A stretch of DNA of 64,000 bases from Nemertoderma westbladi (taxonomy: Eukaryota > Animalia > Xenacoelomorpha): the NCBI GenBank assembly GCA_032718475.1, contig JAUCBJ010006708.1, positions 1 through 64,000 on the forward strand, in the 5' to 3' direction. Each line of letters begins with the position of its first letter. Position 1 is the first letter of the stretch. A model generated the notes under the pieces. That model worked only from the letters and a program-made list of their open reading frames with translations, made no database searches and was not told the DNA's origin. Below are positions 561 to 64,000 of the stretch, piece by piece. The translations under genes were made by a program, and so were the position numbers.

Positions 561-1849
561 TTTATGCGATTATTCGCAACATTCATGTCCCCAAGTTTAT
601 TCCTACAGTAATTGTGTTTGTTACACATACCATTATAGTTAAATTAACCCCGGTACTACACGGGCTGCTTGGCGTAGGAAAAGACTGGTGACTTTGTGCT
701 TCGGTCACTCCAGCAGATGCCGTGGTTCTTTTAACTGTTCAAGTATATTTAACTACTGATTATTTGTTGTACCAGTACTTGTACCTAATTTAGGGTTTAG
801 TGTACAGTGCTTTCCGAAGTAATTAGTGTGTAGGCAGTATATTTGTGTTGTAAAGTGGTTAATAGGCACGTTGGATCTGGTAGTCCGCGGTAATTAACTT
901 CCAGGTAGGAACACTCCGTGATACATAACGTAGTACCTATAGCGATACGGCTATAGGTCGTCAGGCGGTGGTATTTTCCTATCTGGACAGTGCAATATAT
1001 TTACTACTACTTATTATTTTCAAATACCGTAGTATCCTGTCCGATGTAATAACCAGAAAATCTAACACTCTGTTAGACTGGTTTGTAGTTCCTTGTAAAA
1101 TTACTCTAAAATTTCGTATTTGTGTTTTTTGTAATTTGTTGAGTTTAATTAGAGATTTAATCTCACCGTATCGTAAGTAATTTGTAGTATTAAGTAACTT
1201 AGGTAAATTAGAATAATCTGTTTTAGTGTCCCATAAGTAGCACTCCACTGAGAGCGCACAGCTTCTGTGTAGTGACTTCCCCCAGAAATAATAACATTTA
1301 TTTCAAGTATTGACAAAACCCATTTTAAACGGGTATATAAATAATATAAATCAACTCAAACGATTTATAAATAGTAGGCCTGCCATACAACAACTAGGTC
1401 TCAATATCAGTTGGACTACTGCTTAGATAACGGTAATAAAGTAAGTTAAAGTAACCAAGTAACCCTAAAATATTCAGAAATTCAATTATTCTAAAATAAT
1501 TGACATACCGGTATTTACCATAGGCTTATTATATTTATTTCTATAAATTTGGGCTGAAATCATACCGGTACTCTGTAATTAATTCTAGTTAATAATTATA
1601 CTTATATACACTATAAGTGCAAGCTGTATACCGGTATTCACAATAGGCCTATTATATATTTATATATATTTGTGCTGAATTTATATACCGGTACTCTGTG
1701 ACAAAACTAGTTTACAATACTTATATATATTATAAGTGTATTCTAATATACTGCAATAAATTACCGGTACTAGGCCAACGGTCATACTGAATTACTAGAC
1801 TTGCTTTAACTGTAACTATAGCAGTAAGCATTCAACTGTATAGCTAAAC

Positions 1850-4800
1850 ATGTCTGACACCCAGCAAAACCTGTCAGACAGTCTAATCGATACAACCATC
1901 TGTGACACAGATAGGAGTGTGGAGCGATTAAGAAAGGAGTTCAGCTCACCTCCTACTGAAAGAAAGGTCATCCCTCCAGTAGTAGTGTCAGACCCTAAGC
2001 TAATCCAACACCGTAGGTCTATCATCGGCACTCGGGCCCAAGTCAAACGGAACCAGGAAGCAGCTGTCCAGCAGCAGCAACAGCCTAGTCAAGAAACTCG
2101 TTCCCAGCGATCCGATAGCTCCAGTAGTTCGGATACTGTAGAGCTGACCCCCGAACGCGGAGTGCAGATGGCGGCTACAGCCTACTCGGATCCCCTTCTC
2201 ACCCTTCCTGCCGCAGTGCTAACTACTATATTGATTGCGGTGGAGGAACATCAAGCCGATTGGGCGAGAAGTAAGAGAGCGACCCAAGATAGTTATGCGG
2301 GATACGCCAGGGAAGAATTGATGTCTATTGTCGAGTCACAATGGAACTTTCCCGGACCCGGACTCCCGTTAGATTTGTCCGAAGCTACTTGGGAAGATAT
2401 ACACAGGATGGGAGTGACTAAAGATACAATGGATCCAGCTGTTTGGAAGAGGTCGGCAGCAGGATATGTGCAGGGATTCTTCGGCTCCTTGGAGCGATTG
2501 GAAGAACAACTGTTTCGACAACCCCAAGGACCTCAAGAGCAGGAAGAGCTGCTATATCAAGTACGCGAAAGAACCCTACGCATTAGACTAATCCTATCAG
2601 CCTTTGAGGAAACTTCCAAAAGAAGACAGGACACGTCGCTGCAGGTTGCTGTCAAAACTTGGTTCCAGCGGGTAGGTCTCAAAGTACAAGAAACGGACCA
2701 GTGGAAATCCCAGCTGTCTGAGAGACTAACCTATGAAGAACCAACCGATGCCACCCTTTCTCAAGTGGAAGGCGAAGAGACCGCAGAGAGACCACGAACG
2801 AGAGACGCCATCGACATTTATCTGTCCGACTATCAGCGTTTCCTAGGAGACGAAGAGTTGAGGAGACGGCTGTCTGGACTTTCCCCTAATAGTGAAGGAA
2901 CCCAGCGTGTGTTAGACTCAATCGATGCTGAAATGTTAGCTGCAAACCAAGCTAAATTTGATGAAAAACTTCGCCTCGCTAGAGTCCAGGAAGAAGAAGT
3001 AAAGAAAAGACGGATAGAGGAACAAAAGGCGGCGGCCATGACAGAAGCAGAAGTAGAAAGAAAGGCAGCGGCGGCAGAAGCAGAAGCAGAAAGAAAGGCA
3101 GCGGCGGCAGAAGCAGAAGCAGAAAGAAAGGCAGCGGCGGCAGAAGCAGAAAGAAAAGCAGCAAAGGCAGTGGCAGAAGCAGAACGGAGAGCCTCTGAGG
3201 AGACTACCCAACTGGAGTTGGAGAATCTACAAGAGACGCAAGACAACATAAATAAACAGTTAACTGCTAGTCACATGCAGATGATGAGAAGATCTACTCC
3301 CAAACGCCAGGGATATACGTCATCGGAGGAAAGCGAAACCACCGATCCTGAAGGCGGAGGAAATAGATCTCGTCTAAGCAGGCATAGAAAAACATCTTAC
3401 CGTCACAAATTGCCTGATTTGCCCCCAGCTGTGAGAAGACAACTAGCTAGCACAGACTTAAGTAGAATAGAACCTACAGACCAAATTATTAAGGTCAAAA
3501 AACTCCCTACTATAGTTGATGAGCCTGAAATAATTAGGCCTGTCGTTCCCAAAGTCACTCCTGTGCTAGAGACCCCTGTACTTCCAGAGCTTAACTCTAA
3601 GTTCCCTTTACACAGTACTACACTGCCTGTACCCGGTAGAACAGTCCATGAGAATATCCCTGTCCTGGAAGCTGAGAGAGAAATCAAAGATTTGTCTCCC
3701 GTCGTCCCGCATCAGCCCGCTACAATGTTGGCGACTCCCGCTTCGGCGGTCGAGTGGGTAGAGGAGGGACGGCGGGGGATGAATCTCCTGCTCGGACAGA
3801 TGCAGGAGACTGTCCACCAACTTAAGGGAACAGTAAGGGAAGGTAGGGCCGAATTGCAAGAAGTGCAGCAAAGTATCGCGCTAGAACGCGACAAATTAGT
3901 CAATATCCAAAAAGGGATACCAATACCCCCTGTAAAATTGTGTCAACCTGTTAGGTGTGAAGTATTACATGCGCAAGGTGTGGAGCCTACACGCATCTAT
4001 ACTGCTAGTGAAGTAGAAACTCCTATAGCAAACCCTATTAAGGGTGATTATAGACCTGTTGTTAATTATATTCCTTATAGACCTGATAATGATCCGAGAA
4101 ATTTATATACCGATAATTCGATATTAAATAACACGATGGCCCAAGAAAGCTTTGCGCGTCAGATGGCTAGAACAGAAGCCCGCCAAGCGGTCAAAGTGGG
4201 AGAGATCGTCAAATTCAATGGAGATGAGATGAAATGGTTACCTTTCAACGAATATTACAAAGACAGCATACAGAACTCTGTGCTATCTAACGGAGAGAAA
4301 CTTAGGTTCCTCATCAAGTGCTTGGAAGGACCTCCCAAGTTAATGGCGTTAAAGTTTATTGGACATCCAGAAGGATTAAGACAAGTTTGGGATACATTAA
4401 ACATCAGGTATGGTAACAAGGATAACATAGCTAAGTATTTGTATGCAAAATTAGTAGCCCCCCGAAACTTCCTTAGTAGTGGGATTATAGAGTTTTCCGA
4501 TGAGATTCAGGAGATCTGTAGACAATTAGACTGGTTAGGTAAGTCTCATGAATATCAGAGTTCCATGGTTATTGGAGCCGTAGTCTCTACTTTGCCAAAG
4601 GGTGGAGTATGTACACGCTGGGACAAGAAAGTGTTGTACATGAATGAACAACAACGACGAAGCCCTACCATGGCTGATCTCATGTCCTTCTTAGATGGTG
4701 AAGTAAAACTACAACTCATCAAGCAGTCCAGAGAGAAAACATCGGAAAATAAGGTAAGTGAGAAACCCGCTTCTAGGAGAAGAGTAACACCAGTGTGTTA

Positions 4801-7800
4801 CACTGACGACGGCGAAAGCCAAGCTTCTCAAGAAGAGGACAGTGGGAAAGACACTGAGAGATCTTACTATGTTGACAAAACCTCAAAAGACGTAAGTAAA
4901 TACAAAGCTCGAACCAACGATAGGAGAGAACAGGTTGCCAAGACCCCTCCTCAGTCCCCTAACAGAATGCACGTAAGAAAGCCCGAACAAAGAACGAGAG
5001 TGCATCAGGTTACCCAAGGTAAAGTGAGTAACATAAAACCTAACTGTGCGCTGTGCGACGGTACCCACCGTTTGAGTGCGTGTGCTGAATTTCTAAAGAA
5101 ATCCCTTGTAGACAGACGTGCAGTCGTATGGGATAAGCGGTTATGCTATAATTGCCTCAGACCAGGACACCAACGGCGAACCTGTTACTCCGACGTAAAG
5201 TGTGCAAAGTGTAGCGCGAAACATCACATCTTGTTACACAGTGAGTTCGACCGAGACAACCCGAGTCAGGTAAGTGAGCCCGAACTACATGTCCAATTCA
5301 GTGATGTAAACGACACTGATCAAGAATCTGAGATGGAAGGATTCTATACTGACGAATTCTCCGACGCCAACGAATCCTGTTATCTAATCAATACCGCAGT
5401 GTATCGAGCACTTACTTATGAAAAGGACACCAACAATGAGTTTCCCCCAACTACTTTTGCCAGACAACCATCTTGGAAAGCTCCAACTTCCAACGTAGGA
5501 ATCAGAGAATTTCCTGTAGTGCAGGTAAGAGTTCACGGTCCTAACAAAAGTTACATAGTGAACGCACTCCTTGACTCCGGCAGCACAGGAACATTCATCG
5601 ATCAAGAACTAGCCGAAGATATCTTTGCTGGACAACCCAAATTCCGGACTAAATTGAATATGTCAGGAATTATGCAGGTTTGGAAATCTACCCTAACGGC
5701 AGATTACTATGTAGGTGTGTTGTCCACCCCCCAGGATAAATTAGGAGCACAAGGTATAAGGTCGGTAAAAATGGTGGCTATAAAGAACTTCGCTACTACT
5801 CAAGCAGACCTTTATAATTGGGACGAGGATGAGAGCATCCAACATCTTAAGATACCTCGATTCCAGACAGATTATCCTGGAGTGCAAATACTCATCGGCC
5901 AAAACGCGCATGAGGCGCTCGAGACATTGGAGAAACGGCCTGCTCAACCACAGCCACTGCAAACCTATGCGGTAAGAACTAGAGTAGGTTGGTACTTTAC
6001 TGGCCCTTCCCGCAGGACTCTCGAAGAGAGAATGCCACAAGAACGAATATACCAAGTAAACGATTGGGAAGTGGAGAGCAGTGAGGTGGACGAACTAACT
6101 GAGGGAACACCATACTCCTCAGATAATGACGACATCTACCAACTCTTCGATGAAGAGAACACAATCGACCTACTTACAGAAAACCAAACTTGGAAAAATC
6201 AGGTGAACCTATGTCAACTGATTCGCCCATCGGAACCCATCGCTTACAATGACGAACTAAACGATGAGATAGAGCGCTACAACGCTAGAACTCGGGACGA
6301 ACTAGCCGTACGATTCTTTACTCAAGAACTGGTAGAGCCCAATTCATATGATAAGGCCCTATCGATAGAAGAAGAAAGAGCCAAGCAAATCCAGGAAACA
6401 ACTACACGTTTTTTAAAGGACCAAGGTAGATATGAAATCGGCCTACCATTTCGAAAACGAGAACCTAGATTTATAAATAACAGACCCTTGGCAGAGAAAA
6501 GAATCGCTCAATTACATCGACGCCTTACAGCTAATGCTTCAGCTAAAGAAATGTACCAAACTCAGCTGAAGAAATTTATAACAAAGGGATACGCGGAGCG
6601 AGTACCGGAAGGAACACCAGTGACTGAGAGAACGTATTACTTAACACATCATTACGTTCCCAAACCCGGTAAACCCCACGAAGTACGAGTCGTATTCGAT
6701 GGCTCCGCCCTATATATGGGCCAATCCCTCAATTCCGAGTTGTTACCAGGACCCAACTTACTCCAATCTTTGTTGGGAATACTTTTAAGATTAAGACAAT
6801 ATTCCATCGCGTTCGCCTCCGATATAGAAGGAATGTTCTTACAAGTCAAGGCGCTGGATAGAGATAGAGACAGCCTGAGATTTCTGTGGTGGCCTGAAGG
6901 AGACCTCAATCAGAAACCGGTAGAGTACTGGATGACCATCCAGGCTTTTGGAATCATATCAAGCCCTTCCAACGCCTGCTCCGTGGTGCGAACCACTGCG
7001 AATGACAACCGAGACTCCTTCTCAAAAGAAGTGATAGACAACATAAAACGTAATATATACATGGACGACAATTTAAGGTCCCTTCCATCAGTAGAAGAAG
7101 CCATAGATGTCGCGAAAGGAACGGTAGAGTGTTTGAAAAGAGGTGGATTTCGACTGACGAAATTCACTAGCAACTCCCGTGAGTTTCTGGAAGCCATACC
7201 GGTAGAAGACCGAGGAACGAAAGACCTAGACTTAATAAAGGACGATCTTCCTGAAACCAAGACGCTTGGCTTGAAGTGGGACACTGAAAGAGACATCCTG
7301 TTTTTTCAGTTAAAACAGCGAGATAATCCAGTTCGGACCAAACGGATTTGTTTAAGTATCCTGAGCACTTATTTCGACCCATTGGGATTTATAAGCCCAG
7401 TTATATTGATTGCTCGGAGTTTAGTACAACAAATGTGGCTTGAAAACCACTCATGGGACGATCCGCTTAAGGGAGAATTGTTAAAGAAATGGATGAAATG
7501 GGAAGATTCTCTACCCGCCATCGAGAACTTTATAATTTCCCGTGCATATTTTGGCCATGTTCTTCCTACGTATTCCTATCAACTCCATGTGTTTGGAGAC
7601 GCCAGCGACATGGGAATAGGTATAGTAGCATATCTGCGAGTCGAAACCCCGGATGGAATCAAAGTCGCCTTGGTTACCTCTAAGGCATTGATTAACAACA
7701 AGTTAAAGGTTCCTCGAGCGGAGTTAAAGGCGGCTTTATACGCTACAGCCATCGGCCGGAACGTAACGGAACAAATCGACTATCCACTGGAGAAAACGGT

Positions 7801-9931
7801 TTATTGGACCGACGCTTTACTCGTGTTGGAGTATCTAACCAATGAAGTCTGTCAGTTCAGCGTTTTTGTTACTAACAGGGTAGCTATTATTCTTAGTCGC
7901 ACAAAGATAGATCAATGGAGACATTGCCCTGGTACGATTAATCCAGCCGATATCGCCTCCAGGGGAGCAACTCCACAGGAACTGATAGATACTCCAGATT
8001 GGTTGGGTGGACCCGACTTCCTGAGCAAGGAAGAGGATGAATGGCCCCCTCACCTTACTACGGCGGAGATTAGACAAGCCAAGGGAGCGGAGACAGTCAA
8101 ACCTAAAACCCGGGCGAGTAAATCGAAGTTATTTAAACCGACTATCGATCTATCTGTATTACATACTTCCGGGAATGATGCTTCGGATCCACAATCCCTC
8201 AACACAAATAAGTCTGTTGTGGAAATTAGAGATAGAGATTGGAAATCTGGAATACCAGACGTCTCGCAAGGAATCTCACCCATGCTGCAGAGAGCAATGC
8301 ATCACTACAGTTCCTGGAATCGGCTCTGTAAAGCCGTCACATATTTAAGACGATGTTTTCATCATCACTACTCCAGGACGAAGACCACTAGTGATACCGC
8401 TCCATTGACATCTGCACAAGTTCATGTTATTAAAAATTTACCCAAATATAAGACATCTGACCGTTTTCTAAAGGAGAAAATTAGTCACCAGGAGCATGAA
8501 GAAACCAATAAGCAGATACTGAGACTCCTGCAATGCTATGAGGATTCCGAAAAGTATTTCCTGTTGTTGAGAAATCCGCAGATGCGCTTAAGGGATCGAT
8601 TCTCGAGCACAATGATAGATGGGTTAATACGTGTTGGAGGAAGACTCACCAATGCGCCCTTATCCTTTGACACCAAATTCCCCATACTCATTAGAAATCT
8701 TGAAGTACAAATCAAGATGATTGTAGATGTTCACAGTAAACTTTATCATGCTGGTAGAGAACGAGTTCTTAGCGAAATTCGAACTCGCTATTATTTTGAT
8801 AAACCCCGTAGAGCTCTGAACCAAGTTCTTAGGAACTGCATACCCTGTAGGAAAGCATTCAGTAGGCCTTTAACACAGCGAGAGGCAGAATTACCTAGGG
8901 AACGAGTAAGCTTCTATGAACCACCTTTTACTAATACTGGTGTAGATTTATTTGGCCCTATTGAAGTATATCGTGCTAGGACTATAGTCAAGAGATGGTG
9001 TGTCATCTTCGTGTGCATGACTTGTAGAGCCATCCATCTCGATATGGTGAACGATCTATCCACCAACAGCTTTGTCTTAAGTTTACGACGACAGATCGCT
9101 CGCTTCGGGACGAGTAATACCATGAGATCGGATAAGGGAACGAACTTCATTGGTGCCAACAACGAAATACAGGACTGGAACCAAAGACAGGTGGACGACC
9201 AGCTAAGGATAACAGCGTCTAGCTGGACCTTCAACGCCGCCGACGCCCCTTGGTGGGGAGGAAGTTGGGAGAGATTAATTCGAAGTGTCAAAACCGCATT
9301 TCACTTTATAGTGCCATGCCGCACGTATCTCACCGACGAACTTTTGCGGACGTTAATGGAGGAAATAGCTGCCTATTTCAACGAGAGACCACTTATGCCA
9401 GTCTCATCGAGTCCCGATTCCCTGGAAGCGCTAACACCCGCGCACTTCCTACTGAAGAAACCTGTAGCCATGCTCCCACGATCGGAGATTGCCGACGGAG
9501 ACGAATACTGCCGTCGAACTTGGCAACTTATGCAGTTGCTATCCCGTCGTTTCGCTGACCATTTCGAGAAACATTATCTGCCCACGCTACAACTTCGAAC
9601 TAAGTGGTTTGCGCAGCAAGAAAACGTCAGCGCCGGAGATATGGTGCTTATTGTAGATCCAGACCTCCCACGTAAACGGTGGCAGACAGGTCGTATCATC
9701 GAGACTCACATCTCGGATGATGGTTTAGTGCGCTCAGTAGAACTTGTCGTCATGCGGCGTAACTTCAAGAAGCCAGGCATAATCTTTGAGACGCAACAAC
9801 TCAATCGCCCAGTTGGTCGTTTATGTTTACTGGAAAGAGACAGAGAACTCTCTGGAAACTATGGAAGGCAAGACACTCTTCCCACGACCACCTCCCTAAT
9901 TCCTCAAACATCTAGGGACTCCCCAACGTGA
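1850..9931 (+). CDS. Gag-Pol polyprotein, BEL/Pao (Belpaoviridae), 2693 aa, uninterrupted
   Basis: DUF1759-like Gag (KFNGDEMKWLPF...EKLRFLIKCLEG). Triple zinc knuckle CALCDGTH..C / CYNCLRPGH..C / CAKCSAKHH..H. Protease LLDSGS, RT YMDD. Pao RNase H FGDAS..PRAEL..WTDA..NPADIASRG. Integrase H..H..CIPC, GVDLFGP, RSDKGTNF, WERLIRSVK. C-terminal YLPTLQLRTKW..DGLVRSV. Confidence 0.97.
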   Translation: MSDTQQNLSDSLIDTTICDTDRSVERLRKEFSSPPTERKVIPPVVVSDPKLIQHRRSIIGTRAQVKRNQEAAVQQQQQPSQETRSQRSDSSSSSDTVELTPERGVQMAATAYSDPLLTLPAAVLTTILIAVEEHQADWARSKRATQDSYAGYAREELMSIVESQWNFPGPGLPLDLSEATWEDIHRMGVTKDTMDPAVWKRSAAGYVQGFFGSLERLEEQLFRQPQGPQEQEELLYQVRERTLRIRLILSAFEETSKRRQDTSLQVAVKTWFQRVGLKVQETDQWKSQLSERLTYEEPTDATLSQVEGEETAERPRTRDAIDIYLSDYQRFLGDEELRRRLSGLSPNSEGTQRVLDSIDAEMLAANQAKFDEKLRLARVQEEEVKKRRIEEQKAAAMTEAEVERKAAAAEAEAERKAAAAEAEAERKAAAAEAERKAAKAVAEAERRASEETTQLELENLQETQDNINKQLTASHMQMMRRSTPKRQGYTSSEESETTDPEGGGNRSRLSRHRKTSYRHKLPDLPPAVRRQLASTDLSRIEPTDQIIKVKKLPTIVDEPEIIRPVVPKVTPVLETPVLPELNSKFPLHSTTLPVPGRTVHENIPVLEAEREIKDLSPVVPHQPATMLATPASAVEWVEEGRRGMNLLLGQMQETVHQLKGTVREGRAELQEVQQSIALERDKLVNIQKGIPIPPVKLCQPVRCEVLHAQGVEPTRIYTASEVETPIANPIKGDYRPVVNYIPYRPDNDPRNLYTDNSILNNTMAQESFARQMARTEARQAVKVGEIVKFNGDEMKWLPFNEYYKDSIQNSVLSNGEKLRFLIKCLEGPPKLMALKFIGHPEGLRQVWDTLNIRYGNKDNIAKYLYAKLVAPRNFLSSGIIEFSDEIQEICRQLDWLGKSHEYQSSMVIGAVVSTLPKGGVCTRWDKKVLYMNEQQRRSPTMADLMSFLDGEVKLQLIKQSREKTSENKVSEKPASRRRVTPVCYTDDGESQASQEEDSGKDTERSYYVDKTSKDVSKYKARTNDRREQVAKTPPQSPNRMHVRKPEQRTRVHQVTQGKVSNIKPNCALCDGTHRLSACAEFLKKSLVDRRAVVWDKRLCYNCLRPGHQRRTCYSDVKCAKCSAKHHILLHSEFDRDNPSQVSEPELHVQFSDVNDTDQESEMEGFYTDEFSDANESCYLINTAVYRALTYEKDTNNEFPPTTFARQPSWKAPTSNVGIREFPVVQVRVHGPNKSYIVNALLDSGSTGTFIDQELAEDIFAGQPKFRTKLNMSGIMQVWKSTLTADYYVGVLSTPQDKLGAQGIRSVKMVAIKNFATTQADLYNWDEDESIQHLKIPRFQTDYPGVQILIGQNAHEALETLEKRPAQPQPLQTYAVRTRVGWYFTGPSRRTLEERMPQERIYQVNDWEVESSEVDELTEGTPYSSDNDDIYQLFDEENTIDLLTENQTWKNQVNLCQLIRPSEPIAYNDELNDEIERYNARTRDELAVRFFTQELVEPNSYDKALSIEEERAKQIQETTTRFLKDQGRYEIGLPFRKREPRFINNRPLAEKRIAQLHRRLTANASAKEMYQTQLKKFITKGYAERVPEGTPVTERTYYLTHHYVPKPGKPHEVRVVFDGSALYMGQSLNSELLPGPNLLQSLLGILLRLRQYSIAFASDIEGMFLQVKALDRDRDSLRFLWWPEGDLNQKPVEYWMTIQAFGIISSPSNACSVVRTTANDNRDSFSKEVIDNIKRNIYMDDNLRSLPSVEEAIDVAKGTVECLKRGGFRLTKFTSNSREFLEAIPVEDRGTKDLDLIKDDLPETKTLGLKWDTERDILFFQLKQRDNPVRTKRICLSILSTYFDPLGFISPVILIARSLVQQMWLENHSWDDPLKGELLKKWMKWEDSLPAIENFIISRAYFGHVLPTYSYQLHVFGDASDMGIGIVAYLRVETPDGIKVALVTSKALINNKLKVPRAELKAALYATAIGRNVTEQIDYPLEKTVYWTDALLVLEYLTNEVCQFSVFVTNRVAIILSRTKIDQWRHCPGTINPADIASRGATPQELIDTPDWLGGPDFLSKEEDEWPPHLTTAEIRQAKGAETVKPKTRASKSKLFKPTIDLSVLHTSGNDASDPQSLNTNKSVVEIRDRDWKSGIPDVSQGISPMLQRAMHHYSSWNRLCKAVTYLRRCFHHHYSRTKTTSDTAPLTSAQVHVIKNLPKYKTSDRFLKEKISHQEHEETNKQILRLLQCYEDSEKYFLLLRNPQMRLRDRFSSTMIDGLIRVGGRLTNAPLSFDTKFPILIRNLEVQIKMIVDVHSKLYHAGRERVLSEIRTRYYFDKPRRALNQVLRNCIPCRKAFSRPLTQREAELPRERVSFYEPPFTNTGVDLFGPIEVYRARTIVKRWCVIFVCMTCRAIHLDMVNDLSTNSFVLSLRRQIARFGTSNTMRSDKGTNFIGANNEIQDWNQRQVDDQLRITASSWTFNAADAPWWGGSWERLIRSVKTAFHFIVPCRTYLTDELLRTLMEEIAAYFNERPLMPVSSSPDSLEALTPAHFLLKKPVAMLPRSEIADGDEYCRRTWQLMQLLSRRFADHFEKHYLPTLQLRTKWFAQQENVSAGDMVLIVDPDLPRKRWQTGRIIETHISDDGLVRSVELVVMRRNFKKPGIIFETQQLNRPVGRLCLLERDRELSGNYGRQDTLPTTTSLIPQTSRDSPT

Positions 9932-11516: not shown

Positions 11517-11557
11517 AATATAAACTTATTTGATATTAATAAACTCAGATAGCAGAT

Positions 11558-15106: not shown

Positions 15107-15876
15107 TTTAAGGTTTATTGTTTGTGGTCGACTGGCTTGGGTTACATTGATGGTTTCTAGAATGTCAGATTGTCTATTTACCGGTTCTACTTCGCCCTGT
15201 CGACACCCCCTGTCATTTTTTAACCATTAATTTGTTGGTGAATGTTCTAGAACATTAGTAGGTATTTTTTCAAGGAAGGGTAGATAGTATATATATTATG
15301 AAAATACAAAATATATTTTATTCTTAAATTATTACTTTTTTGCTCGAATATAGCCCAAAATCGGGAGAAAAAGTTGCTCTTTTTTTCCCAAGGGAAAAAA
15401 GTAAAATAAAATATTTTGTTTGAATTTCTTAAATTTTAATACAATTTGATTGAAAGAGAATCGAAGTAGAAAAGGTTCGCAAATAATTTGAGCCAAAATC
15501 CATTCAAAAACTCAAAATTTATTGACAAACTATGAAAGACAAACTATAAAACCGAACTCAGTATCCATTATTGGTTTATGTTGTTAAGCGGCTCTCTAAG
15601 TTACCTAATAAATATCCGAGAACATTAAATTATTTAACATTGAGTTAAGGCAGCCATCAGGAGTTGGAGAGTTCAATAATTACAATAGCAGTAAATATGG
15701 AAGCAATATAGTAAAATACTACAGTTCAATTTATTTTATAACACAACTGTACTGTAGTATATCGCTATGTTTCATTAAAGAATTGAGCAACAAAAAAGTA
15801 AGAATATAATTACGTATTACATGGGAAAAAAGTGGAACATTTCTTTTCAATATTCTCTCGACCCTTTATTAACCTC

Positions 15877-17059
15877 TGTAAAAGCTTTTGCGGATATACT
15901 CAGTCCCCCTCGCCCGCAAGGTACCGTTATAGGTGTTTTAACAGACATAAAAGTCATTCTTCTATATACGTGCTTTGGAGGACATGGTAAGGCAAAAAAC
16001 CCACAATGCACCAAATACCCTTGCACAGCTTAGCCTTGATGATTCAGATTACGACATCTAACAGCTGGTTGCTGACATGGAAACGGCCATTGGACACATG
16101 GTTCTTTGTTTAGCTTAACAGCCAATCAGAGCGATTTTTTCTGTCGATGTGGAGCTTTTTGGCAGATCATGCTAGGAGTGTTGAGTCTTACGCTTTTTCT
16201 TGATACTGTTGTGTTGTTTCTATCTAGGCCAGGAACACCGGCTCTAGAGTCAACTCGTTTTCATACTTTAGAAGAAACATTAGTAGGCTTAAATTATAGA
16301 GCGTATAACTGTTATCTTATCATATCTCACTTCAGTCTTACATTATCGGTTCAACATACATTATTATACTGCTATTTACTGTTGTCATATTTTGTATCAG
16401 TTGGTTGAATATTATTTGGAGAACATTTATAAAGAACCCAAATTTCCCAATTTTCTTGATACACTACAGGTTAGAGAGACGGGTTATATATAGCGATTGC
16501 GACTTATATTATTGTGGTTTGTAGTGAATTTAATGCTATTTGATAAGCACTACAAGAGTCCGTTGCTGTTCTCTTTATATATGATAAAATTCATTGACTG
16601 TCTGCAAATTAGTGAGCAGTATTGTGTGTTACCGGTAGTGTGCCTGATTGTGACTGATAACTAAGCATTTCCTAAAGAATGCGCCTCATACGTGAATCAT
16701 AAGCCTTACCGACTTACCGTTGTGATTAGTATAAGTCATATCTCTGTTTACCTAGATAGAGCGCCACGTCCTAAAGGAACTGTTAATATTTCCCGAAAGT
16801 GAATAATATTGGTCAGAAATTATTTATTAACGATCAATCGAATAATACAGTAAGCTTACACTGCAATAATAATCTAAGCCCTCAGAATCCAGTCTCCCGG
16901 GTATATCCAGCGGGTGAATGGACGCGCACTAGGCTGGCTTCTGCTAATGTTGTGTTTATTGGTATTAAATATTTGTCAACTTCTAAAGTCTATTTATAAA
17001 CCAAAAGACATATAAATTTTGGCAGGTTAAACTGCTAAAGGTCTTCAAAAGCGCGTACA
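15877..17059 (+). repeat. 5' LTR (1183 bp)
   Basis: Begins TGTAAAAGC and ends GCGCGTACA. Near-identical to 30032-31216. CCAAT motif near 16120. Confidence 0.96.
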
Positions 17060-17070
17060 ATAACAGTTAT
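17060..17070 (+). promoter_or_regulatory. Non-tRNA primer-binding site (candidate self-priming PBS) ATAACAGTTAT
   Basis: Directly abuts the LTR end, has no TGG, and is the exact reverse complement of ATAACTGTTAT at 16305-16315 within the LTR. Confidence 0.6.
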
Positions 17071-17125
17071 TGACTTTATTGCAGTAAGCAATAAAGTTGA
17101 AAGTACCGGTCGACCGGTAAACTTG

Positions 17126-17252
17126 AACCGGTACTTCTGTAGGTCAGTAGGCCCAACTGCCAGAACCGGTACTGCTGTAGGTCCATAGGTCCAACTGCCA
17201 GAACCGGTACTTCTGTAGGTCTGTAGGCCCAACTGTCCTAACCGGTACTTCC
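17126..17252 (+). repeat. ~38-bp tandem repeat (3+ copies) in the leader
   Basis: Unit like AACCGGTACTTCTGTAGGTCAGTAGGCCCAACTGCCAG. Confidence 0.85.
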
Positions 17253-19296: not shown

Positions 19297-22200
19297 ATGT
19301 CTGACACCCAGCAAAACCTGTCAGACAGTCTAATCGATACAACCATCTGTGACACAGATAGGAGTGTGGAGCGATTAAGAAAGGAGTTCAGCTCACCTCC
19401 TACTGAAAGAAAGGTCATCCCTCCAGTAGTAGTATCCGACCCTAAGCTAATCCAACACCGTAGGTCTATCATCGGCACTCGGGCCCAGGTCAAACGGAAC
19501 CAGGAAGCAGCTGTCCAACAGCAGCAACATCCTAGTCAAGAAACTTGTTCCCAGCGATCGGATAGCTCCAGTAGTTCGGATACTGTAGAGCTGACCCCCC
19601 GAACGCGGATTGCAGATGGCGGCTACAGCCTACTCGGACCCCCTTCTCACCCTTCCTGCCGCAGTACTAACTACTATATTGATTGCGGTGGAGGAATATC
19701 AAGCCGATTGGGCGAGAAGTAAGAGAGCGACCCAAGATGATTATGCGGGATACGCCAGAGAAGAATTGGTGTCTATTGTCGAGTCACAATGGAACTTTCC
19801 CGGACCCGGACTCCCGTTAGATTTGTCCGAAGCTACTTGGGAAGATATACACAGGATGGGAGTGACTAAAGATACGATGGATCCAGCTGTTTGGAAGAGG
19901 TCGGCAGCAGGATATGTGCAGGGATTCTTCGGCTCCTTAGAGAGATTGGAAGAACAATTGTTTCGACCTCAAGAGCAGGAAGAGCTGCTTTATCAAGTAC
20001 GCGAAAGAACCCTACGTATTAGACTAATCCTATCAGCCTTTGAGGAAACTTCCAAAAGAAGACAGGACACGTCGCTGCAGGTTGCTGTCAAGACTTGGTT
20101 CCAGCGGGTAGGTCTCAAAGTGCAAGAAACGGCCCAGTGGAAATCCCAGCTGGCTGAAAGACCAACCTATGAAGAACCAACCGATGCCACCCTTTCTCAA
20201 ATGGAAAGCGAAGAAACACCAGCAGAGAAGCCGCCCTCGAGAGATGCCATAGACATCTATCTGTCAGACTATCAACGCTTCTTGGGTGATGAAGAGTTGA
20301 GGAGACGGCTGTCTGGACTTTCCCCTAATAGTGAAGGAACCAAGCTTGTGTTGGACGCAATCAATGCGGAAATGTTATCTGCAAACCAAGCTGAATTTGA
20401 TGAAAAACTCCGCCTCACTAGAGTCCAAGAAGAACAAGTAAAAAAAAACAGATAGAGGACCGAAAAGCAGCAGCAGTAACGGCGGCAGAAGCAGAAGCAG
20501 CAAAGGTAGCGGCAGCGGCAGAAGCAGAAGCAGCAAAGGTAGCGGCAGCGGCAGAAGCAGAAGCAGCAAAGGTAGCGGCAGCGGCAGAAGCAGAAGCAGC
20601 AAAGGTAGCAGCAGCGGCAGAAGCAGAAGCAGCAAAGGCAGCGGCAGAAGCAGAAGCAGCGAAGGCAGCGGCAGCAGCAGAAGCAGAAAGAAAGGCAGCG
20701 GTGGCAAAAGCAGAACTGAGAGCGTCTGAGGAGACTACCCAACTAGAGTTGGAAAATCTGCAAGAGACGCAAGACAACATAAATAAACAGTTAACCGCTA
20801 GTCACATGCAGATGATGAGAAGATCTACTCCCAAACGCCAGAGATATACATCATCGGAGGAAAGCGAAACCACCGATCCTGAAGGCGGAGGAAATAGATC
20901 TCGTCTAAGCAGGCGTAGAAAAACATCTTACCGTCACAAATTGCCTGATTTGCCCCCAGCTGTTCGAAGACAACTAGCTAGCACAGACTTAAGTAGTATA
21001 GAACCTACAGACCAAATTATTAAGATCAAAAAACTCCCTACTATAGTTGATGAGCCTGAAATAATTAGGCCTGTCGTTCCCAAAGTCACTCCTGTGTTAG
21101 AGACCCCTGTACTTCCAGAGCTTAACTCTAAATTCCCTTTACACAGTACTACACTGCCTGTGCCCGGTAGAACAGTCCATGAGAATATCCCTGTCCTGGA
21201 AGCTGAGAGAGAAATCAAAGATTTGTCTCCCGTCGTCCCACGTCAGCCCGCTACAATGTTGGCGACTCCCGCTTCGGCGGTCGAGTGGGTAGAGGAGGGA
21301 CGGCGGGGGATGAATCTCCTGCTCGGACAGATGCAGGAGACTGTCTACCAACTTAAGGGAACAGTAAGGGAAGGTAGGGCCGAGTTGCAAGAAGTGCAGC
21401 AAAGTATCGCGCTAGAACGCGACAAATTAGTCAACATCCAAAAAGGTATACCCATACCCCCTGTAAAATTGTGTCAACCTGTTAGGTCTGAAGTATTACA
21501 TGCGCAAGGTGTGGAGCCTACACGCATCTATACTGCTAGTGAAGTAGAAACTCCTATAGCAAACCCTATTAAGGGTGATTATAGACCTGTTGTTAATGAT
21601 ATTCCCTATAGACCTGATAATGATCCGAGAAATTTATATACCGATAATTCGATATTAAATAACACGATGGCCCAAGAAAGCTTTACGCGTCAGATGGCTA
21701 GAACAGAAGCCCGCCAAGCGGTCAAAGTGGGAGAGATCGTTAAATTCAATGGAGATGAGATGAAATGGTTACCTTTCAATGAATATTACAAAGATAGCAT
21801 ACAGAACTCTGTACTATCTAACGGAGAGAAACTTAGATTCCTCATCAAGTGCTTGGAAGGACCTTCCAGGTTAATGGCGTTAAAGTTTATTGGACATCCA
21901 GAAGGATTAAGACAAGTTTGGGATACATTAAACATCAGGTATGGTAACAAGGATAACATAGCTAAGTATTTGTATGCAAAATTAGTAGCCCCCCGACACT
22001 TCCTTAGTAGCGGGATTATAGAGTTTTCCGATGAGATTCAGGAGATCTGTAGACAATTGGACTGGTTAGGTAAGTCTCATGAATATCAGAGTTCCATGGT
22101 TATTGGAGCAGTAGTCTCTACTTTACCAAAGGGTGGAGTATGTACGCGCTGGGACAAGAAAGTGTTGTATATGAATGAACAGCAACGACGAAGCCCTACC

Positions 22201-25200
22201 ATGGCTGATCTCATGTCCTTCTTAGGTGGTGAAGTAAAACTACAACTCATCAAGCAGTCCAGAGAGAAAACATCGGAAAATAAGGTAAGTGAGAAACCCG
22301 CTTCTAGGAGAAGAGTAACACCGGTGTGTTACACTGACGACGGCGAAAGCCAAGCTTCTCAAGAAGAGGACAGCGGGAAAGACACTGATAGATCTTACTA
22401 CGTTGACAAAACCTCAAAAGACGTAAGTAAATACAAGGCTCGAAACAACGATAGGAGAGAACAGGTTGCCAAGACCCCTCCTCAGTCCCCTAACAGAATG
22501 CACGTAAGAAAGCCCGAACAAAGAACGAGAGTGCATCAGGTTACCCAAGGTAAAGTGAGTAACATAAAACCTAACTGTGCGCTGTGCGACGGGACCCACC
22601 GTTTGAGTGCGTGTGCTGAATTTCTAAAGAAATCTCTTGTAGACAGACGTGCAGTCGTGTGGGATAAGCGGTTATGCTATAATTGCCTCAGACCAGGACA
22701 CCAACGGCGAACCTGTTACTCCGACATAAAGTGTGCAAAGTGTGGCGCGAAACATCACATCTTGTTACACAGTGAGTTCGAACGAGACAAACAGAGTCAG
22801 GTAAGTGAGCCCGAACTACATGTCCAATTCAGTGATGTAAATGACACTGATCAGGAGTCTGAGATGGAAGGATTCTATACTGACGAATTCTCCGACGCCA
22901 ACGAATCCTGTTACCTAATCAATACCGCGGTGTATCGAGCACTTACTTATGAAAAGGACACCGAAAATGAGTTCCCCCAACTACCTTTGACAGACAACCA
23001 TCTTGGAAAGCTCCAACTTCCAATGTAGGAATCAGAGAATTTCCTGTAGTGCAGGTAAGAGTTCATGGTCCTAACAACAGTTACATAGTGAACGCCCTCC
23101 TTGACTCCGGCAGCACAGGAACATTCATCGATCAAGAACTAGCCGAAGATATCTTTGCTGGACAACCCAAATTCCGGACTAAATTGAATATGTCAGGAAT
23201 TATGCAGGTTTGGAAATCTACCCTAACGGCAGATTACTATGTAGGTGTGTTGTCCACCCCCCAGGATAAGTTAGGAGCACAAGGTATAAGGTCGGTAAAA
23301 ATGGTGGCTATAAAGAACTTCGCTACTACTCAAGCAGACCTTTATAATTGGGACGAGGATGAAAGCATCCGACATCTTAAGATACCTCGATTCCAGACAG
23401 ATTATCCTGGAGTGCAAATACTCATCAGCCAAAACGCGCATGAGGCGCTCGAGACATTGGAGAAACTGCCTGCTCAACCGCAGCCATTGCAAACCTATGC
23501 GGTAAGAACTAGAGTAGGTTGGTACTTTACTGGCCCTTCCCGCAGGACTCTCGAAGAGAGAATGCCACAAGAACGAATATACCAAGTAAACGATTGGGAA
23601 GTGGAGAGCAGTGAGGTGGACGAACTAACTGAGGAAACACCATACTCCTCAGATAATGACGACATCTACCAACTCTTCGATGAAGAGAATACAATCGACC
23701 TACTTACAGAAAACAAAACTTGGAAAAATCAGGTGAACCTATGTCAACTGATTCGCCCATCGGAACCCATCGCTTACAATGACGAACTAAACGATGAGAT
23801 AGAGCGCTACAACGCTAGAACTCGGGACGAACTAGCCTTAAGATTCTTTACTCAAGAACTGGTAGAGCCCAATTCATATGATAAGGCCCTATCAATAGAA
23901 GAAGAAAGAGCCAAGCAAATCCAGGAAACAACTACACGTTTTTTAAAGGACCAATGTAGATATGAAATCGGCCTACCATTTCGAAAACGAGAACCTAGAT
24001 TTATAAATAACAGACCCTTGGCAGAGAAAAGAATCGCTCAATTACATCGACGCCTTACGGCTAATGCTTCAGCTAAAGAAATGTACCAAACTCAGCTGAA
24101 GAAATTTATAACAAAGGGATACGCGGAGCGAGTACCGGAAGGAACACCAGTGACTGAGAGAACGTATTACTTAACACATCATTACGTTCCCAAACCCGGT
24201 AAACCCCACGAAGTACGAGTCGTATTCGATGGCTCCGCCCTATATATGGGCCAATCCCTTAATTCCGAGTTGTTACCAGGACCCAACTTACTCCAATCTT
24301 TGTTGGGAATACTTTTAAGATTAAGACAATATTCCATCGCGTTCGCCTCCGATATAGAAGGAATGTTCTTACAAGTCAAGGCGCTGGATAGAGATAGAGA
24401 CAGCCTGAGATTTCTGTGGTGGCCTGAAGGAGACCTCAATCAGAAACCGGTAGAGTACTGGATGACCATCCAGGCTTTTGGAATCATATCAAGCCCTTCC
24501 AACGCCTGCTCCGTGGTGCGAACCACTGCGAATGACAACCGAGACTCCTTCTCAAAAGAGGTGATAGACAACATCAAACGGAATATATACATGGACGACA
24601 ATTTAAGGTCCCTTCCATCAGTAGAAGAAGCCATAGATGTCGCGAAAGGAACGGTAGAGTGTTTGAAAAGAGGTGGATTTCGACTGACGAAATTCACCAG
24701 CAACTCCCGTAAGTTTCTGGAAGCGATACCGGTAGAAGACCGAGGAACGAAAGACCTAGACTTAATAAAGGACGATCTTCCTGAAACCAAGACGCTTGGC
24801 TTGAAGTGGGACACTGAAAGAGACATCCTGTTTTTTCAGTTAAAACAGCGAGATAATCCAGTTCGGACCAAACGGATTTGTTTAAGTATCCTGAGCACTT
24901 ATTTCGACCCATTGGGATTTATTAGCCCAGTTATATTGATTGCTCGGAGTTTAGTACAACAAATGTGGCTTGAAAACCACTCATGGGACGATCCGCTTAA
25001 GGGAGAACTGTTAAAGAAATGGATGAAATGGGAAGATTCTCTACCTGCCATCGAGAACTTTATAATTTCCCGTGCATATTTTGGCCATGTTCTTCCTACG
25101 TATTCCTATCAACTCCATGTGTTTGGAGACGCCAGCGACATGGGAATAGGTATAGTGGCATATCTGCGAGTCGAAACTCCGGATGGAATCAAAGTCGCCT

Positions 25201-27473
25201 TGGTTACCTCTAAGGCATTGATTAACAACAAGTTAAAGGTTCCTCGAGCGGAGTTAAAGGCGGCTTTATACGCTACAGCCATCGGCCGGAACGTAACAGA
25301 ACAGATCGACTATCCACTGGAGAAAACGGTTTATTGGACCGACGCTTTACTCGTGTTGGAGTATCTAACCAATGAAGTCTGTCAGTTCAGCGTTTTTGTT
25401 ACTAACAGGGTAGCTATTATTCTTAGTCGCACAAAGATAGATCAATGGAGACATTGCCCTGGTACGATTAATCCAGCTGATATCGCCTCCAGGGGAGTAA
25501 CTCCACAGGAACTGATAGATACTCCAGACTGGTTGGGTGGACCCGACTTCCTGAGCAAGGAAGAGGATGAATGGCCTCCTCACCTTACTACGGCGGAGAT
25601 TAGACAAGCCAAGGGAGCGGAGACAGTCAAACCTAAAACCCGGGCGAGTAAATCGAAGTTATTTAAACCGACTATCGATCTATCTGTATTACATACTTCC
25701 GGGAATGATGCTTCGGATCCACAATCCCTCAACACAAATAAGGCTGTTGTGGAAATTAGAGATAGAGACTGGAAATCTGGAATACCAGACATCTCGCAAG
25801 GAATCTCACCCCTGCTGCAGAGAGCAATGCATCACTACAGTTCCTGGAATCGGCTCTGTAAAGCCGTCACATATTTAAGGAGATGTTTTCATCATCACTA
25901 CTCCAGGACGAAGACCATTAGTGATACCGCTCCATTGACATCTGCGCAAGTTCATGTTATTAAAAATTTACCCAAATATAAAACATCCGACCGGTTTCTA
26001 AAGGAGAAAATTAGTTACCAGGAGCATGAAGAAACCAATAAGCAGATACTGAGACTCCTGCAATGCTATGAGGATTCCGATAAGTATTTCCTGTTGTTGA
26101 GAAATCCGCAGATGCACTTAAGGGATCGATTCTCTAGCACAATGATAGATGGGTTAATACGTGTTGGAGGAAGGCTCACCAATGCGCCATTATCCTTTGA
26201 CACTAAATTCCCCATACTCATTAGAAATCTTGAAGTACAAATCAAGATGATTGTAGATGTTCACAGTAAACTTTATCATGCGGGTAGAGAACGAGTTCTT
26301 AGCGAAATTCGAACTCGCTATTATTTTGATAAACCCCGTAGAGCTCTGAACCAAGTTCTTAGGAACTGCATACCCTGTAGGAAAGCATTCAGTAGGCCTT
26401 TAACACAGCGAGAGGCAGAATTACCTAGGGAACGAGTAAGCTTCTATGAACCACCTTTTACTAATACTGGTGTAGATTTATTTGGCCCTATTGAAGTATA
26501 TCGTGCTAGGACTATAGTCAAGAGATGGTGTGTCATCTTCGTGTGCATGACTTGTAGAGCCATCCATCTCGATATGGTGAACGATCTATCTACCAACAGC
26601 TTTGTCTTAAGTCTACGACGACAGATCGCTCGCTTCGGGACGAGTAATACCATGAGATCGGATAAGGGAATGAACTTCATTGGTGCCAACAACGAAATAC
26701 AGGCTTACGTGAAGGACTGGAACCAAAGACAGGTGGACGACCAGCTAAGGATAACAGCGTCTAGCTGGACCTTCAACGCCGCCGACGCCCCTTGGTGGGG
26801 AGGAAGTTGGGAGAGATTAATTCGAAGTGTCAAAACTGCATTTCACTTTATAGTGCCATGCCGCGCGTATCTCACCGACGAACTTTTGCGGACGTTAATG
26901 GAGGAAATAGCTGCCTATCTCAACGAAAGACCGCTTATGCCAGTCTCATCGAGTCCCGATTCCCTGGAAGCGCTAACACCTGCGCACTTCCTACTGAAGA
27001 AACCTGTAGCCATGCTCCCACGATCGGAGATTGCCGATGGAGACGAATACTGCCGTCGAACTTGGCAACTTATGCAGTTGCTATCCCATCGTTTCGCTGA
27101 CCATTTCGAGAAACATTATCTGCCCACGCTACAACTTCGAACTAAGTGGTTTGCGCAGCAAGAAAACGTCAGCGCCGGAGATATGGTGCTTATTGTAGAT
27201 CCAGACCTCCCACGTAAACGGTGGCAGACAGGTCGTATCATCGAGACCCACATCTCGGATGATGGTTTAGTACGCTCAGTAGAACTCATTGTCATGCGGC
27301 GTAACTTCAAGAAGCCAGGCATAATCTTTGAGACGCAACAACTCAATCGCCCAGTTGGTCGTTTATGTTTACTGGAAAGAGACAGAGAACTCTCTGGAAA
27401 CTATGGAAGGCAAGACACTCTTCCCACGACCACCTCCCTAATTCCTCAAACATCTAGGGACTCCCCAACATGA
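19297..27473 (+). pseudogene. Gag-Pol of copy B, broken by three 1-bp frameshifts
   Basis: ORF pieces 19297-19722, 19610-20455, 20701-23028 and 23049-27473 align to copy A. Indels fall in a C-run (~19600), an A-run (~20445) and a T/C-run (~22975). Confidence 0.93.
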
Positions 27474-29091: not shown

Positions 29092-29953
29092 ATGACGGAG
29101 TTGATAGAAGATGATCTTGGTATTAGGGAGCGATATACTCTACCTTTGCAAGCATTTGTGGATAGCTTAATACGCGGTGAAGCCGATCCAACCATTACGG
29201 AGGACGATGGTCGTTATATCGAACCGCCGATGTCCCAAGAGCAACTTGCGCGTGAATTGGACTATCGAAAATCCACCGCTCGCTATACGCATCGTAATAG
29301 TACGTATATGGACTTCCTAACTACCGGCCATTCTATCGATTTACATGATACGGACGATGTAGACACCGAAAGGGAAATGGTTCTATTTAAATATCATACC
29401 CAGCGGAGTCGTAACGATAAACCGAGAATAGATCACGAAAATTCTACTCGTAACAGACTGGGAAGACGAACCAATATGCCTAGAATCTGAGGAGATTCAG
29501 CCTATCGCACCCGGAACAGCGACAACGATTACATCCTAGAATGGTATCAAGGTCCACAGTGTCTCACTGCGTACGATTATCGACATGCCAACTATGTTTC
29601 TAGGCAACGTTGTCGGTTATGCGCATCGAGAGACCATGATACGCCCATGGACACCAACGTCCGCTGTTCCTATTTCCAAGAACAACCGACTATGGAAATT
29701 TATTGCGCATATTGCAGACTCAATAACTTGCATATTTTTGCGGTTTGCCCTCAATTTATGATTTGATGTCAATCAACCCGGTACTTCGACTGGCGGATAC
29801 ACCGACCATAATCCTACACCCTCTGATGCAATCATATTGCACCCTTCACCCAGGAGTTATAGCCCTCCTTGTAAAGTGGCTCGCCCCAAAGAGAAAAAGA
29901 CTCTGGCTAGCTTTAAAAAACTGCGTAAACGCCGTCCGCGCAAGAAAGACTAA
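29092..29953 (+). pseudogene. ORF2 of copy B: internally deleted, retains N-terminus plus C-terminal CCHC zinc fingers and basic tail
   Basis: The first ~123 codons match copy A, then the sequence diverges at ~29460. After a TGA (29488-29490) the same frame reads CRLCASRDH..C..CAYCRLNNLHIFAVCP. After a frameshift near 29765 it reads ...KKLRKRRPRKKD* (stop 29951-29953). Confidence 0.75.
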
Positions 29954-30023
29954 CTGTTTAGAGTATTTACATATATTAGAAACTGTGATTTTTGTACATT
30001 TATAAACTTGAATCCCATTTTCT

Positions 30024-30031
30024 GGGAGCGG
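30024..30031 (+). promoter_or_regulatory. Putative polypurine tract GGGAGCGG
   Basis: Purine-rich run directly 5' of the 3' LTR. Confidence 0.55.
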
Positions 30032-31216
30032 TGTAAAAGCTTTTGCGGATATACTCAGTCCCCCTCGCCCGCAAGGTACCGTTATAGGTGTTTTAACGGA
30101 CATAAAAGTCATTCTTCTATATACGTGCTTTGGAGGACATGGTAAGGCAAAAAACCCGCAATGCACCAAATACCCTTGCACAGCTTAGCCTTGATGATTC
30201 AGATTACGACATCTAACAGCTGGTTGCTGACATGGAAACGGCCATTGGACACATGGTTCTTTGTTTAGCTTAACAGCCAATCAGAGCGATTTTTTCTGTC
30301 GATGTGGAGCTTTTTGGCAGATCATGCTAGGAGTGTTGAGTCTTACGCTTTTTCTTGATACTGTTGTGTTGTTTCTATCTAGGCCAGGAACACCGGCTCT
30401 AGAGTCAACTCGTTTTCATACTTTAGAAGAAACATTAGTAGGCTTAAATTATAGAGCGTATAACTGTTATCTTATCTTATCTCACTTCAGTCTTACATTA
30501 TCGGTTCAACATACATTATTATACTGCTATTTACTGTTGTCATATTTTGTATCAGTTGGTTGAATATTATTTGGAGAACATTTATAAAGAACCCAAATTT
30601 CCCAATTTTCTTGATACACATTTTCTCTTAGAGAGACGGGTTATATATAGCGATTGCGACTTATATTATTGTGGTTTGTAGTGAATTTAATGCTATTTGA
30701 TAAGCACTACATGAGTCCGTTGCTGTTCTCTTTATATATGATAAAATTCATTGACGGTCGGCAAATTAGTGAGCAGTATTGTGTGTTACCGGTAGTGTGC
30801 CTGATTGTGACTGATAACTAAGCATTTCCTAAAGAATGCGCCTCATACGTGAATCATAAGCCTTACCGACTTACCGTTGTGATTAGTATAAGTCACATCT
30901 CTGTTTACCTAGATAGAGCGCCACGTCCTAAAGGAACTGTTAATATTTCCCGAAAGTGAATAATATTGGTCAGAAATTATTTATTAACGATCAATCGAAT
31001 AATACAGTAAGCTTACACTGCAATAATAATCTAAGCCCTCAGAATCCAGTCTCCCGGGTATATCCAGCGGGTGAATGGACGCGCACTAGGCTGGCTTCTG
31101 CTAATGTTGTGTTTATTGGTATTAAATATTTGTCAACTTCTAAAGTCTATTTATAAACCAAAAGACATATAAATTTTGGCAGGTTAAACTGCTAAAGGTC
31201 TTCAAAAGCGCGTACA
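30032..31216 (+). repeat. 3' LTR (1185 bp)
   Basis: TG..CA ends. By eye it differs from the 5' LTR by about 7 substitutions and one short replaced block. Confidence 0.96.
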
Positions 31217-31772
31217 ACCTCGGTGTCGCTCGGTAAATGAAATGCCTCGAGAATAGTGAAAAAAAGTTCTACTTTTTCTCCCATGTAATAAATAATTATT
31301 ATTTGTTGTATACAAGTCACTTTTTTAGTCAAAGTCGTTTATCAAGTTTGACATAAAAATAGCACTTTTTCTGCCAACACAAAAAGTAATGTTTCCATGA
31401 CATTAATTATAATACTGCATTTAAATAGATTAAATAGATAATTTCTAATAATAGCGAGTTTTTGCTTATTTTATTATAAATGTTCTAGAACAAGTGTTGG
31501 TTATCAATTTTGATAAATATTTTTGTTCTAGAACACATTTTTTTTTCTAGAACATTTTTAGGAAAAAAAATACCATACCACTGTCAGAAGGTCAAATATT
31601 TGTTCTAGAATAAAAACCTCATGATAAAAGCCTATTTATATGAAAAAAAATAGGTCAAACTACGGGTACCCAAGGTGTTATTGTAATGCCCGTATTTAAC
31701 TATGGAAGAAACTTCGATGGACGATATTTATGCTGAAATAGGCCCAGATAAAAGTGAGAGAAGATTTACAAC

Positions 31773-63944: not shown

Positions 63945-64000
63945 CTAGAAAAAATATAGATACATTGGATTGTGTTAATAAACAATGCTTGCAGGTTTGC

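Follow-up and report, generated by a model that had tools for sequence, protein, structure and literature searches.

The window, the whole 64,000-nt stretch of DNA analysed here and the frame of all coordinates below, contains at 15877-31216 a young BEL/Pao element (copy B) that probably primes reverse transcription with its own RNA. Its primer-binding site (PBS) adjoins the 5' LTR, lacks TGG and has an exact 11-nt complement inside the LTR (16305-16315, termed core in the following). To judge by these letters and by their counterparts in related elements, self-priming through the core is the likely mode. That the RNA supplying the primer begins upstream of the core is a narrower claim, plausible but somewhat short of probable. 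Copy B and its sister, copy A, have the following features:

1844..9931, plus strand: gag-pol of sister copy A, one frame, 2695 aa, query for protein searches (ORF, Pfam)
15872..15876, plus strand: 5' target-site duplication (TSD) ACCTC (sequence)
15877..17059, plus strand: 5' LTR, TG...CA, 1183 bp, 98.8% identical to the 3' LTR
16305..16315, plus strand: predicted core of the self-primer, ATAACTGTTAT, intron-less and exactly complementary to the PBS (sequence, comparison with relatives)
16964..16969, plus strand: ATTAAA, sole poly(A)-signal hexamer within the LTR (motif scan)
17060..17070, plus strand: PBS ATAACAGTTAT, adjoining the 5' LTR, no TGG (sequence)
19595..27473, plus strand: gag-pol of copy B, split over three frames (19595-20455, 20422-23028, 22971-27473) (ORFs, Pfam)
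30024..30031, plus strand: polypurine tract (PPT) GGGAGCGG, present before the 3' LTR only
30032..31216, plus strand: 3' LTR, carrying a core copy at 30460-30470 (LTR pair)
31217..31221, plus strand: 3' target-site duplication ACCTC (sequence)

The two LTRs of copy B differ by 7 substitutions and one short replaced block. Since copies A and B alike carry DUF1759 (Gag, E 3.5e-36), the Pao peptidase A17/RNase H region (5e-12), integrase H2C2 (6.4e-7) and DUF5641 (1.6e-19), copy B is a BEL/Pao element, and Pfam thereby bears out the assignment made in an earlier sequence-only reading of this DNA. Domain order, taken from Pfam and translation, is PR-RT-RH-IN, and translated Gag displays three Cys/His clusters, the triple Cys-His box described as a BEL/Pao hallmark (PMC554778, in excerpt). 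PF05380 is present in all top protein relatives. TG...CA LTRs of this length, TSD and PPT all fit BEL/Pao (LTR range 0.2-1.2 kb), and the element is filed there by protein and tree. With its long leader and extra 3' region, copy B measures 15,340 bp in total and exceeds the 4.2-10 kb given by ICTV. LTR and PBS of copy A lie outside the window, in which no further LTR-like stretch was found besides the copy B LTRs.

The PBS sequence is found once in the window, at 17060, and that of the core at 16305 and 30460 only. Complementarity is perfect over 11 nt at offset 0 and ends on both sides. Absence of TGG after the 5' LTR and the exact complement at 16305-16315 and 30460-30470, both reported before, were confirmed by the LTR pair, TSD and sequence. 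The expected count of an LTR complement arising by chance is 0.0012-0.0045 (Markov orders 0-3), 6 of 12,909 internal 11-mers have a complement in the LTR, and shuffling of the PBS gives p=0.013 (300 shuffles, offsets 0-2) or p=0.004 (1000 shuffles, offsets 0-4). Depending on method, the chance of such a match is about 0.001-0.013. When the LTR of the window is compared with the PBS of 14 other elements, matches reach merely 5-9 nt. With GT[AG] donors allowed, 16305-16315 is the sole LTR partner of at least 10 nt for the copy B PBS, and the best spliced alternative in this LTR reaches 8 nt (p 0.17). An intron inside the core would have its donor GTTATC at 16311 and an acceptor that precedes GTTA (16469 or 17026), and would yield a match of 10 nt at offset 1. 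It was set aside because the donor is devoid of the +5 G of the ten pair-fixed spliced relatives described below and the unspliced core already pairs 11/11.

Nearest proteins are 37-43% identical, and named ones come from echinoderms, cnidarians, molluscs and fish. An RT/RNase H alignment search yielded 80 metagenome loci with 36-44% identity; two scans of viral contigs retrieved no relatives. In 14 of the 80 loci, the LTR's 3' end is fixed by divergence of the two LTR copies (LTR starts of L062 and L030 were placed approximately by hand). PBS-LTR matches were called by a fixed rule: offset 0-4, and either contiguous or joined across GT[AG]...YAG. By this rule, the PBS matches its own LTR over 10-15 nt in 12 of the 14 end-fixed BEL/Pao relatives, across a GT-AG junction at ten loci (L002, L007, L013, L033, L035, L040, L052, L057, L062, L079) and contiguously at two (L043, L048). 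Among mismatched LTR-PBS pairs, 5 of 210 reach 10 nt, two of these being sisters with a common PBS. If the rule is relaxed to any GT donor, 7 of 210 mismatched pairs pass, and L030 passes too. PBS and LTR therefore co-vary across BEL families at the family level (12/14 matched vs 5/210 mismatched), which is the outcome of the comparison proposed in the sequence-only reading. A tRNA-type PBS, with TGG after the LTR, is absent from 12 of the 14; L041 has one, and L030 is ambiguous, showing both TGG at offset 1 and, through a GTTCGT donor, a spliced match of 10 nt. LTR introns of the relatives span 72-186 nt and possess strong donors and pyrimidine tracts. A compensated A/T change between PBS and LTR distinguishes the sisters L043 and L048.

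A whole LTR in single copy is contained in 20 further loci, 11 of which were read across the terminal overlap of their contig. Own-LTR matches of 10-14 nt at a plausible LTR end occur in 17 of the 20, a count that comes without a null and is partly circular, since the LTR end was inferred from the match itself; no plausible LTR partner for the PBS was found in L074, L078 and L046. Scanning 38 more loci upstream of gag gave 5 matches (L003, L023, L045, L053, L080), and most others start too near gag for an LTR. The PBS of L029 (LTR end inferred) begins with ATAAC at offset 0; its exon 1 ends with TCATATG and its exon 2 begins with GTTAT, which places the intron inside the primer. These first bases of exon 2 are the same as the 3' five bases of the copy B core. 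The position of the core differs between copy B and its relatives: the distance from core 3' end to LTR end is 744 nt in copy B vs 66-208 nt in 23 relatives. The core ends in AC in 23 of 27 elements and in AT in copy B.

Absence of the intron is seen in one pair of contigs:

L047 18-28 and 7111-7121 vs L079 7042-7219: L047/L079 intron comparison (contig sequences)

The intron of L079 and its kin L069 and L073 is missing from L047 (RT distance about 0.06) precisely at the GT-AG ends, so that the contig either represents spliced RNA or records intron loss via reverse transcription. L034, L037, L044, L072 and L077 form one clade (SH-aLRT 98), and cores are contiguous in 5/5 members read. Contiguous cores in this clade and in L043/L048 suggest repeated intron loss. 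A quick RT tree, built from 47 rows after removal of near-identical and some unlabelled ones, places the window RT in a group of 8 rows (SH-aLRT 99), which includes three spliced-primer elements together with the TGG element L041; L029 falls in the next group. On simplest reading, copy B would be an intron-less member of a self-priming lineage, with a ready-made core. Since the relatives are as distant as stated above and the branch of the window RT is long (1.24), that the core position is homologous is something we infer. Given the relatives, the match of PBS to own LTR is beyond chance as far as the letters go.

Run X1, possibly the source sample, is represented by contigs only. Twelve of these lie on 16990-17125; among the 8 listed, 5 cross from the LTR end into the non-TGG PBS, three of them with at least 31 letters on either side. 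Of 7 loose ends, 6 are listed and none of these falls at 17059, so no TGG variant was seen among them. One contig of depth 3.55 carries T17068C in the PBS, its partner site being uncovered; X1 contigs leave 16236-16369, including the LTR core, without coverage, and their joints are not GT-AG. With the missing TGG, the co-variation of PBS and own LTR and the X1 contigs that run into the non-TGG PBS, the self-priming proposed by the sequence-only reading gains support. As a separate observation, two separate X1 contigs have loose ends with changed 5' and 3' arms of the hairpin at 17070-17100 that are mutually complementary, which suggests, at the level of sequence, a compensated change in a sister family.

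Two parts of that proposal, the RNA start at about 16305 and a primer made of the first 11 nt, fared differently. The features that bear on them are:

16280..16304, plus strand: segment upstream of the core, containing a purine-rich run and an Inr-like TTAGT whose A (16282) is a candidate start
16304..16311, plus strand: TATA-like TATAACTG, 7/8 to TATAWAWR, overlapping the core (motif scan)
16332..16337, plus strand: Inr-like TCAGTC, A at 16334, 30 nt past the TATA-like box (motif scan)
16339..16642, plus strand: predicted rod-like stem of 300 nt (z -3.35, 0/100 shuffles, pair probability about 1)
17070..17100, plus strand: 13-bp hairpin beside the PBS, containing donor-like GTAAGC at 17084 (folding)
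17104..17119, plus strand: perfect 16-nt palindrome (-31.5 kcal/mol), putative dimerisation site

In motif scans (promoter motifs from PMC3601003, in excerpt), bases 1-33,000, scanned on both strands, gave TATAACTG/TCAGTC as sole TATA-Inr pair, bar its 3' LTR copy, and neither a TATA about 30 nt upstream of 16305 nor an Inr at 16305 was found. 16305 thus appears to be the candidate start with least motif support, the scans pointing to 16334 or 16282, and the claim of a start there gains no support. The same is true for the primer as first 11 nt of the RNA: in relatives, the core frequently straddles a splice junction, and complementarity continues on its 5' side. Across 24 families, post-PBS sequence pairs with the 28 nt that precede the core above the mismatched level (0/20,000 permutations); three control pairings give p 0.45-0.83, and 10 of the 24 families are in the top tenth both ways. 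Owing to this family-matched pairing, primer RNA in the lineage probably reaches beyond the core on the 5' side, so that spliced relatives would have no need of first exons of 4-8 nt. Inr motifs do not cluster significantly upstream of the cores of relatives (five patterns, best p 0.10). The purine-rich run before the copy B core resembles runs before the cores of relatives, and a start at 16282 would give a 34-nt primer. Additional pairing of 16280-16304 with 17071-17089 is weak (shuffle p 0.03-0.09; rank 0.30/0.22, not significant), this downstream partner being sequestered in the hairpin.

The duplex of core and PBS is itself weak (-10.1 kcal/mol). For RNAs ending by 17200, its predicted pairing is 1.0 with start at 16305 and 0.87-0.99 with start at 16282; with start at 16263 it is 0.18-0.32, and it is 0 once the folded RNA reaches 17300 or 17450. 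Since predicted pairing changes with the RNA ends, folding neither proves nor excludes the duplex. According to the model, the rod at 16339-16642 would absorb 300 nt of the 744 nt between core and LTR end.

In the strict Tf1 model, the RNA would start at 16305 and its first 11 nt would pair with the PBS and be cut off as primer. We regard this as unlikely, although several observations agree with it. The perfect duplex stops at 16305 and directly meets the hairpin 17070-17100, so that stacking is possible; this start gives the cleanest of the predicted duplexes; L035 has TATATAAG 31 nt before its core; and the Tf1 primer is exactly 11 nt (PMC7175516, in excerpt). The missing TATA and Inr speak against the model, as do the 4-8 nt first exons that it would require in spliced relatives and the pairing that reaches upstream of the core across families. 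Candidates exist for the two further helices of the three-duplex Tf1 pretzel, between PBS flanks and LTR sequence downstream of the primer (16853-16869 with 17076-17089, -16.4; 16922-16927 with 17051-17056); the local hairpin outcompetes them, and the 25 nt after the core carry no family-matched signal of such helices (p 0.59 and 0.83). Alternatively, the main RNA may start at the Inr 16334, which would put the core into U3 as a TATA box and leave priming to 30460-30470 (of the same RNA or of a dimer partner) or to a rarer upstream-started RNA. This is likewise doubtful. Uniqueness of the TATA-Inr pair favours it, the long stem begins at 16339, only 5 nt past that start, and in Tf2 priming is controlled by alternative starts, with primer-less and primer-bearing RNAs (PMC5341516, in excerpt). 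On the other hand, TATA and core overlap in no relative, the TATA-like box has one mismatch, TCAGTC alternatively reads as pyrimidine tract and CAG splice acceptor, and priming from 3' U3 would presumably strip R from the same molecule. Applied to the whole lineage, the idea would be that the self-primer is something other than the first bases of the RNA: most families would build it by splicing an LTR intron, while in copy B the core would double as TATA box, the main RNA from 16334 would be primer-less, and priming would come from the 3' U3 copy or a second, upstream-started RNA. Such a scheme is possible but not probable; if true, priming would take a two-RNA or circularising route that carries an inherent switch from mRNA to replicable genome and back.

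It is improbable that the 11-mers are no primer pair at all but a palindrome that serves protein binding or dimerisation, the result of local duplication or a product of chance, the real primer being another. The 11-mer is a 5-1-5 palindrome, unique among 24 cores, its LTR site can also be read as TATA box, it lies at an unusual distance from the LTR end, and both 11-mers are preceded by GCGT, as local duplication would have it. Duplication would, however, give identical central bases, and these are complementary (A and T). A dimer site is disfavoured by the energy of PBS-PBS pairing, -5.0 vs -31.5 kcal/mol for the palindrome at 17104-17119, and non-primer readings in general by the own-LTR partner that the non-TGG PBS of relatives nearly always has and by the uniqueness of 16305-16315 as partner in copy B. 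The caveat attached to the earlier proposal, that the near-palindromic 11-mer could be a dimerisation or protein-binding site, is thereby weakened: the 11-mer is indeed palindromic, but most relatives' cores are not, and a stronger dimer palindrome is at hand. Very improbable, finally, is priming at the PBS by a host RNA without CCA end, such as a half-tRNA or other small RNA. Half-tRNA priming exists in Copia lineages (PMC6317226, in excerpt); no tRNA gene was found in the window. The PBS varies freely between families yet tracks its own LTR, which a fixed host RNA would not allow, and the exact LTR complement would be left unexplained.

For self-priming through the core, we infer a course of events that builds on the observed anatomy, the PBS-LTR match of the relatives and the intron absence in L047, and that beyond the sequence match is a proposal. 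RNA of copy B would start probably some 15-40 nt upstream of the core (candidate 16282), and its 16305-16315 would pair with the PBS at 17060-17070, so that the primer would exceed 11 nt, with pairing confined to the 11 nt at its 3' end. As in Tf1, the primer RNA would be cut just after 16315, probably by RNase H of the element, and the new RNA 3' end at 16315 would prime minus-strand DNA. The 300-nt stem and the PBS-side hairpin may draw core and PBS close to each other and leave the PBS accessible.

A similar arrangement is known from Tf1/Tf2 of S. pombe, Tj1, Tosmo and the Tf1/sushi chromoviruses (Ty3/gypsy) in general, which have an LTR-adjoining PBS with an 11-nt complement in their own LTR and no tRNA site (PMC7175516, PMC4600332, bioRxiv 2022.12.06.519325, in excerpt). 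A literature search gave no paper bearing on the suggestion of the sequence-only reading that the Tf1/Tf2 PBS likewise begins with ATAAC. Unlike these, copy B has BEL/Pao protein without a chromodomain match in Pfam, a 5'-terminal position of its primer is putative, pretzel helices have no family-matched signal and the core is remote from the LTR end; moreover, in most BEL/Pao relatives splicing forms the core. Copy B would thus probably work like Tf1 self-priming without being a Tf1/sushi member, and the first 11 nt of its RNA are probably not the primer. Self-priming has also been predicted, from sequence alone and in more than one superfamily, for the TAR lineage (Houba, Osr-1; Ty1/copia) and Tcn1 (Ty3/gypsy) of plants (PMC6317226, in excerpt). 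These belong to other superfamilies and hosts, and the excerpted text does not mention a splice-built primer for them.

As to BEL/Pao itself, the ICTV profile of Belpaoviridae lists an 18-nt PBS for tRNA-Arg or tRNA-Gly, tRNA priming and a 4.2-10 kb genome (PMC8742986). Copy B resembles Belpaoviridae/Semotivirus in domain set, LTR length (0.2-1.2 kb) and PPT, and differs in having no tRNA PBS and 15.3 kb (PMC8742986). Most marine-type relatives with readable PBS likewise have no tRNA site and match their own LTR, usually after splicing, whereas tRNA priming is what ICTV lists; judged by PBS letters, the tRNA PBS of the profile is not general in BEL/Pao. In the excerpted literature, the elements described as self-priming are limited to Tf1/sushi, Tcn1 and the TAR lineage of Copia (PMC6317226, bioRxiv 2022.12.06.519325, PMC5341516, PMC4600332, PMC7175516). 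The words "PBS" and "tRNA" are absent from the main texts of two BEL/Pao papers (PMC3118150, PMC554778), and PMC8220671, in excerpt, mentions the PBS only generically. No self-primed or splice-primed BEL/Pao element was found in the literature searched, although subscription papers, Repbase/GyDB entries or supplements could hold one.

If confirmed, BEL/Pao would be the third LTR superfamily with self-priming, and its reverse transcription would be gated by host splicing or start-site choice. Such elements would presumably escape control by tRNA fragments, and annotation tools requiring a TGG PBS would miss them. Copy B allows a sharp test, since the primer would differ between the three candidate starts (16282, 16305, 16334).

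Further observations concern the surroundings. Copy A, whose 3' LTR is not in the window, is 94-97% identical to copy B. After pol it has a second long ORF (1187 aa, 11543-15106), of which copy B retains the start only, diverging after 29466. The part at 13700-14650 resembles a DEDD 3'-5' exonuclease (PF01612 among Atlas best matches, score 0.81, a lead only); no Pfam or PDB match was found for it. Behind it lies a 30-nt repeat, interpreted as encoding pentapeptide repeats. Copy B is flanked by a short inverted repeat (15806-15857 with 31249-31299, 85%) and therefore probably inserted into another small element. In its 2.5-kb leader, the palindrome at 17104-17119 precedes tandem repeats of 38 nt (17125-17251) and about 287 nt (17424-18003). 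The right half of the window is occupied by satellite arrays with units of about 10, 48, 68, 37 and 30 nt, located at 33331-33689, 36905-42745, 48260-51699 and 60249-64000, which produce spurious long ORFs.
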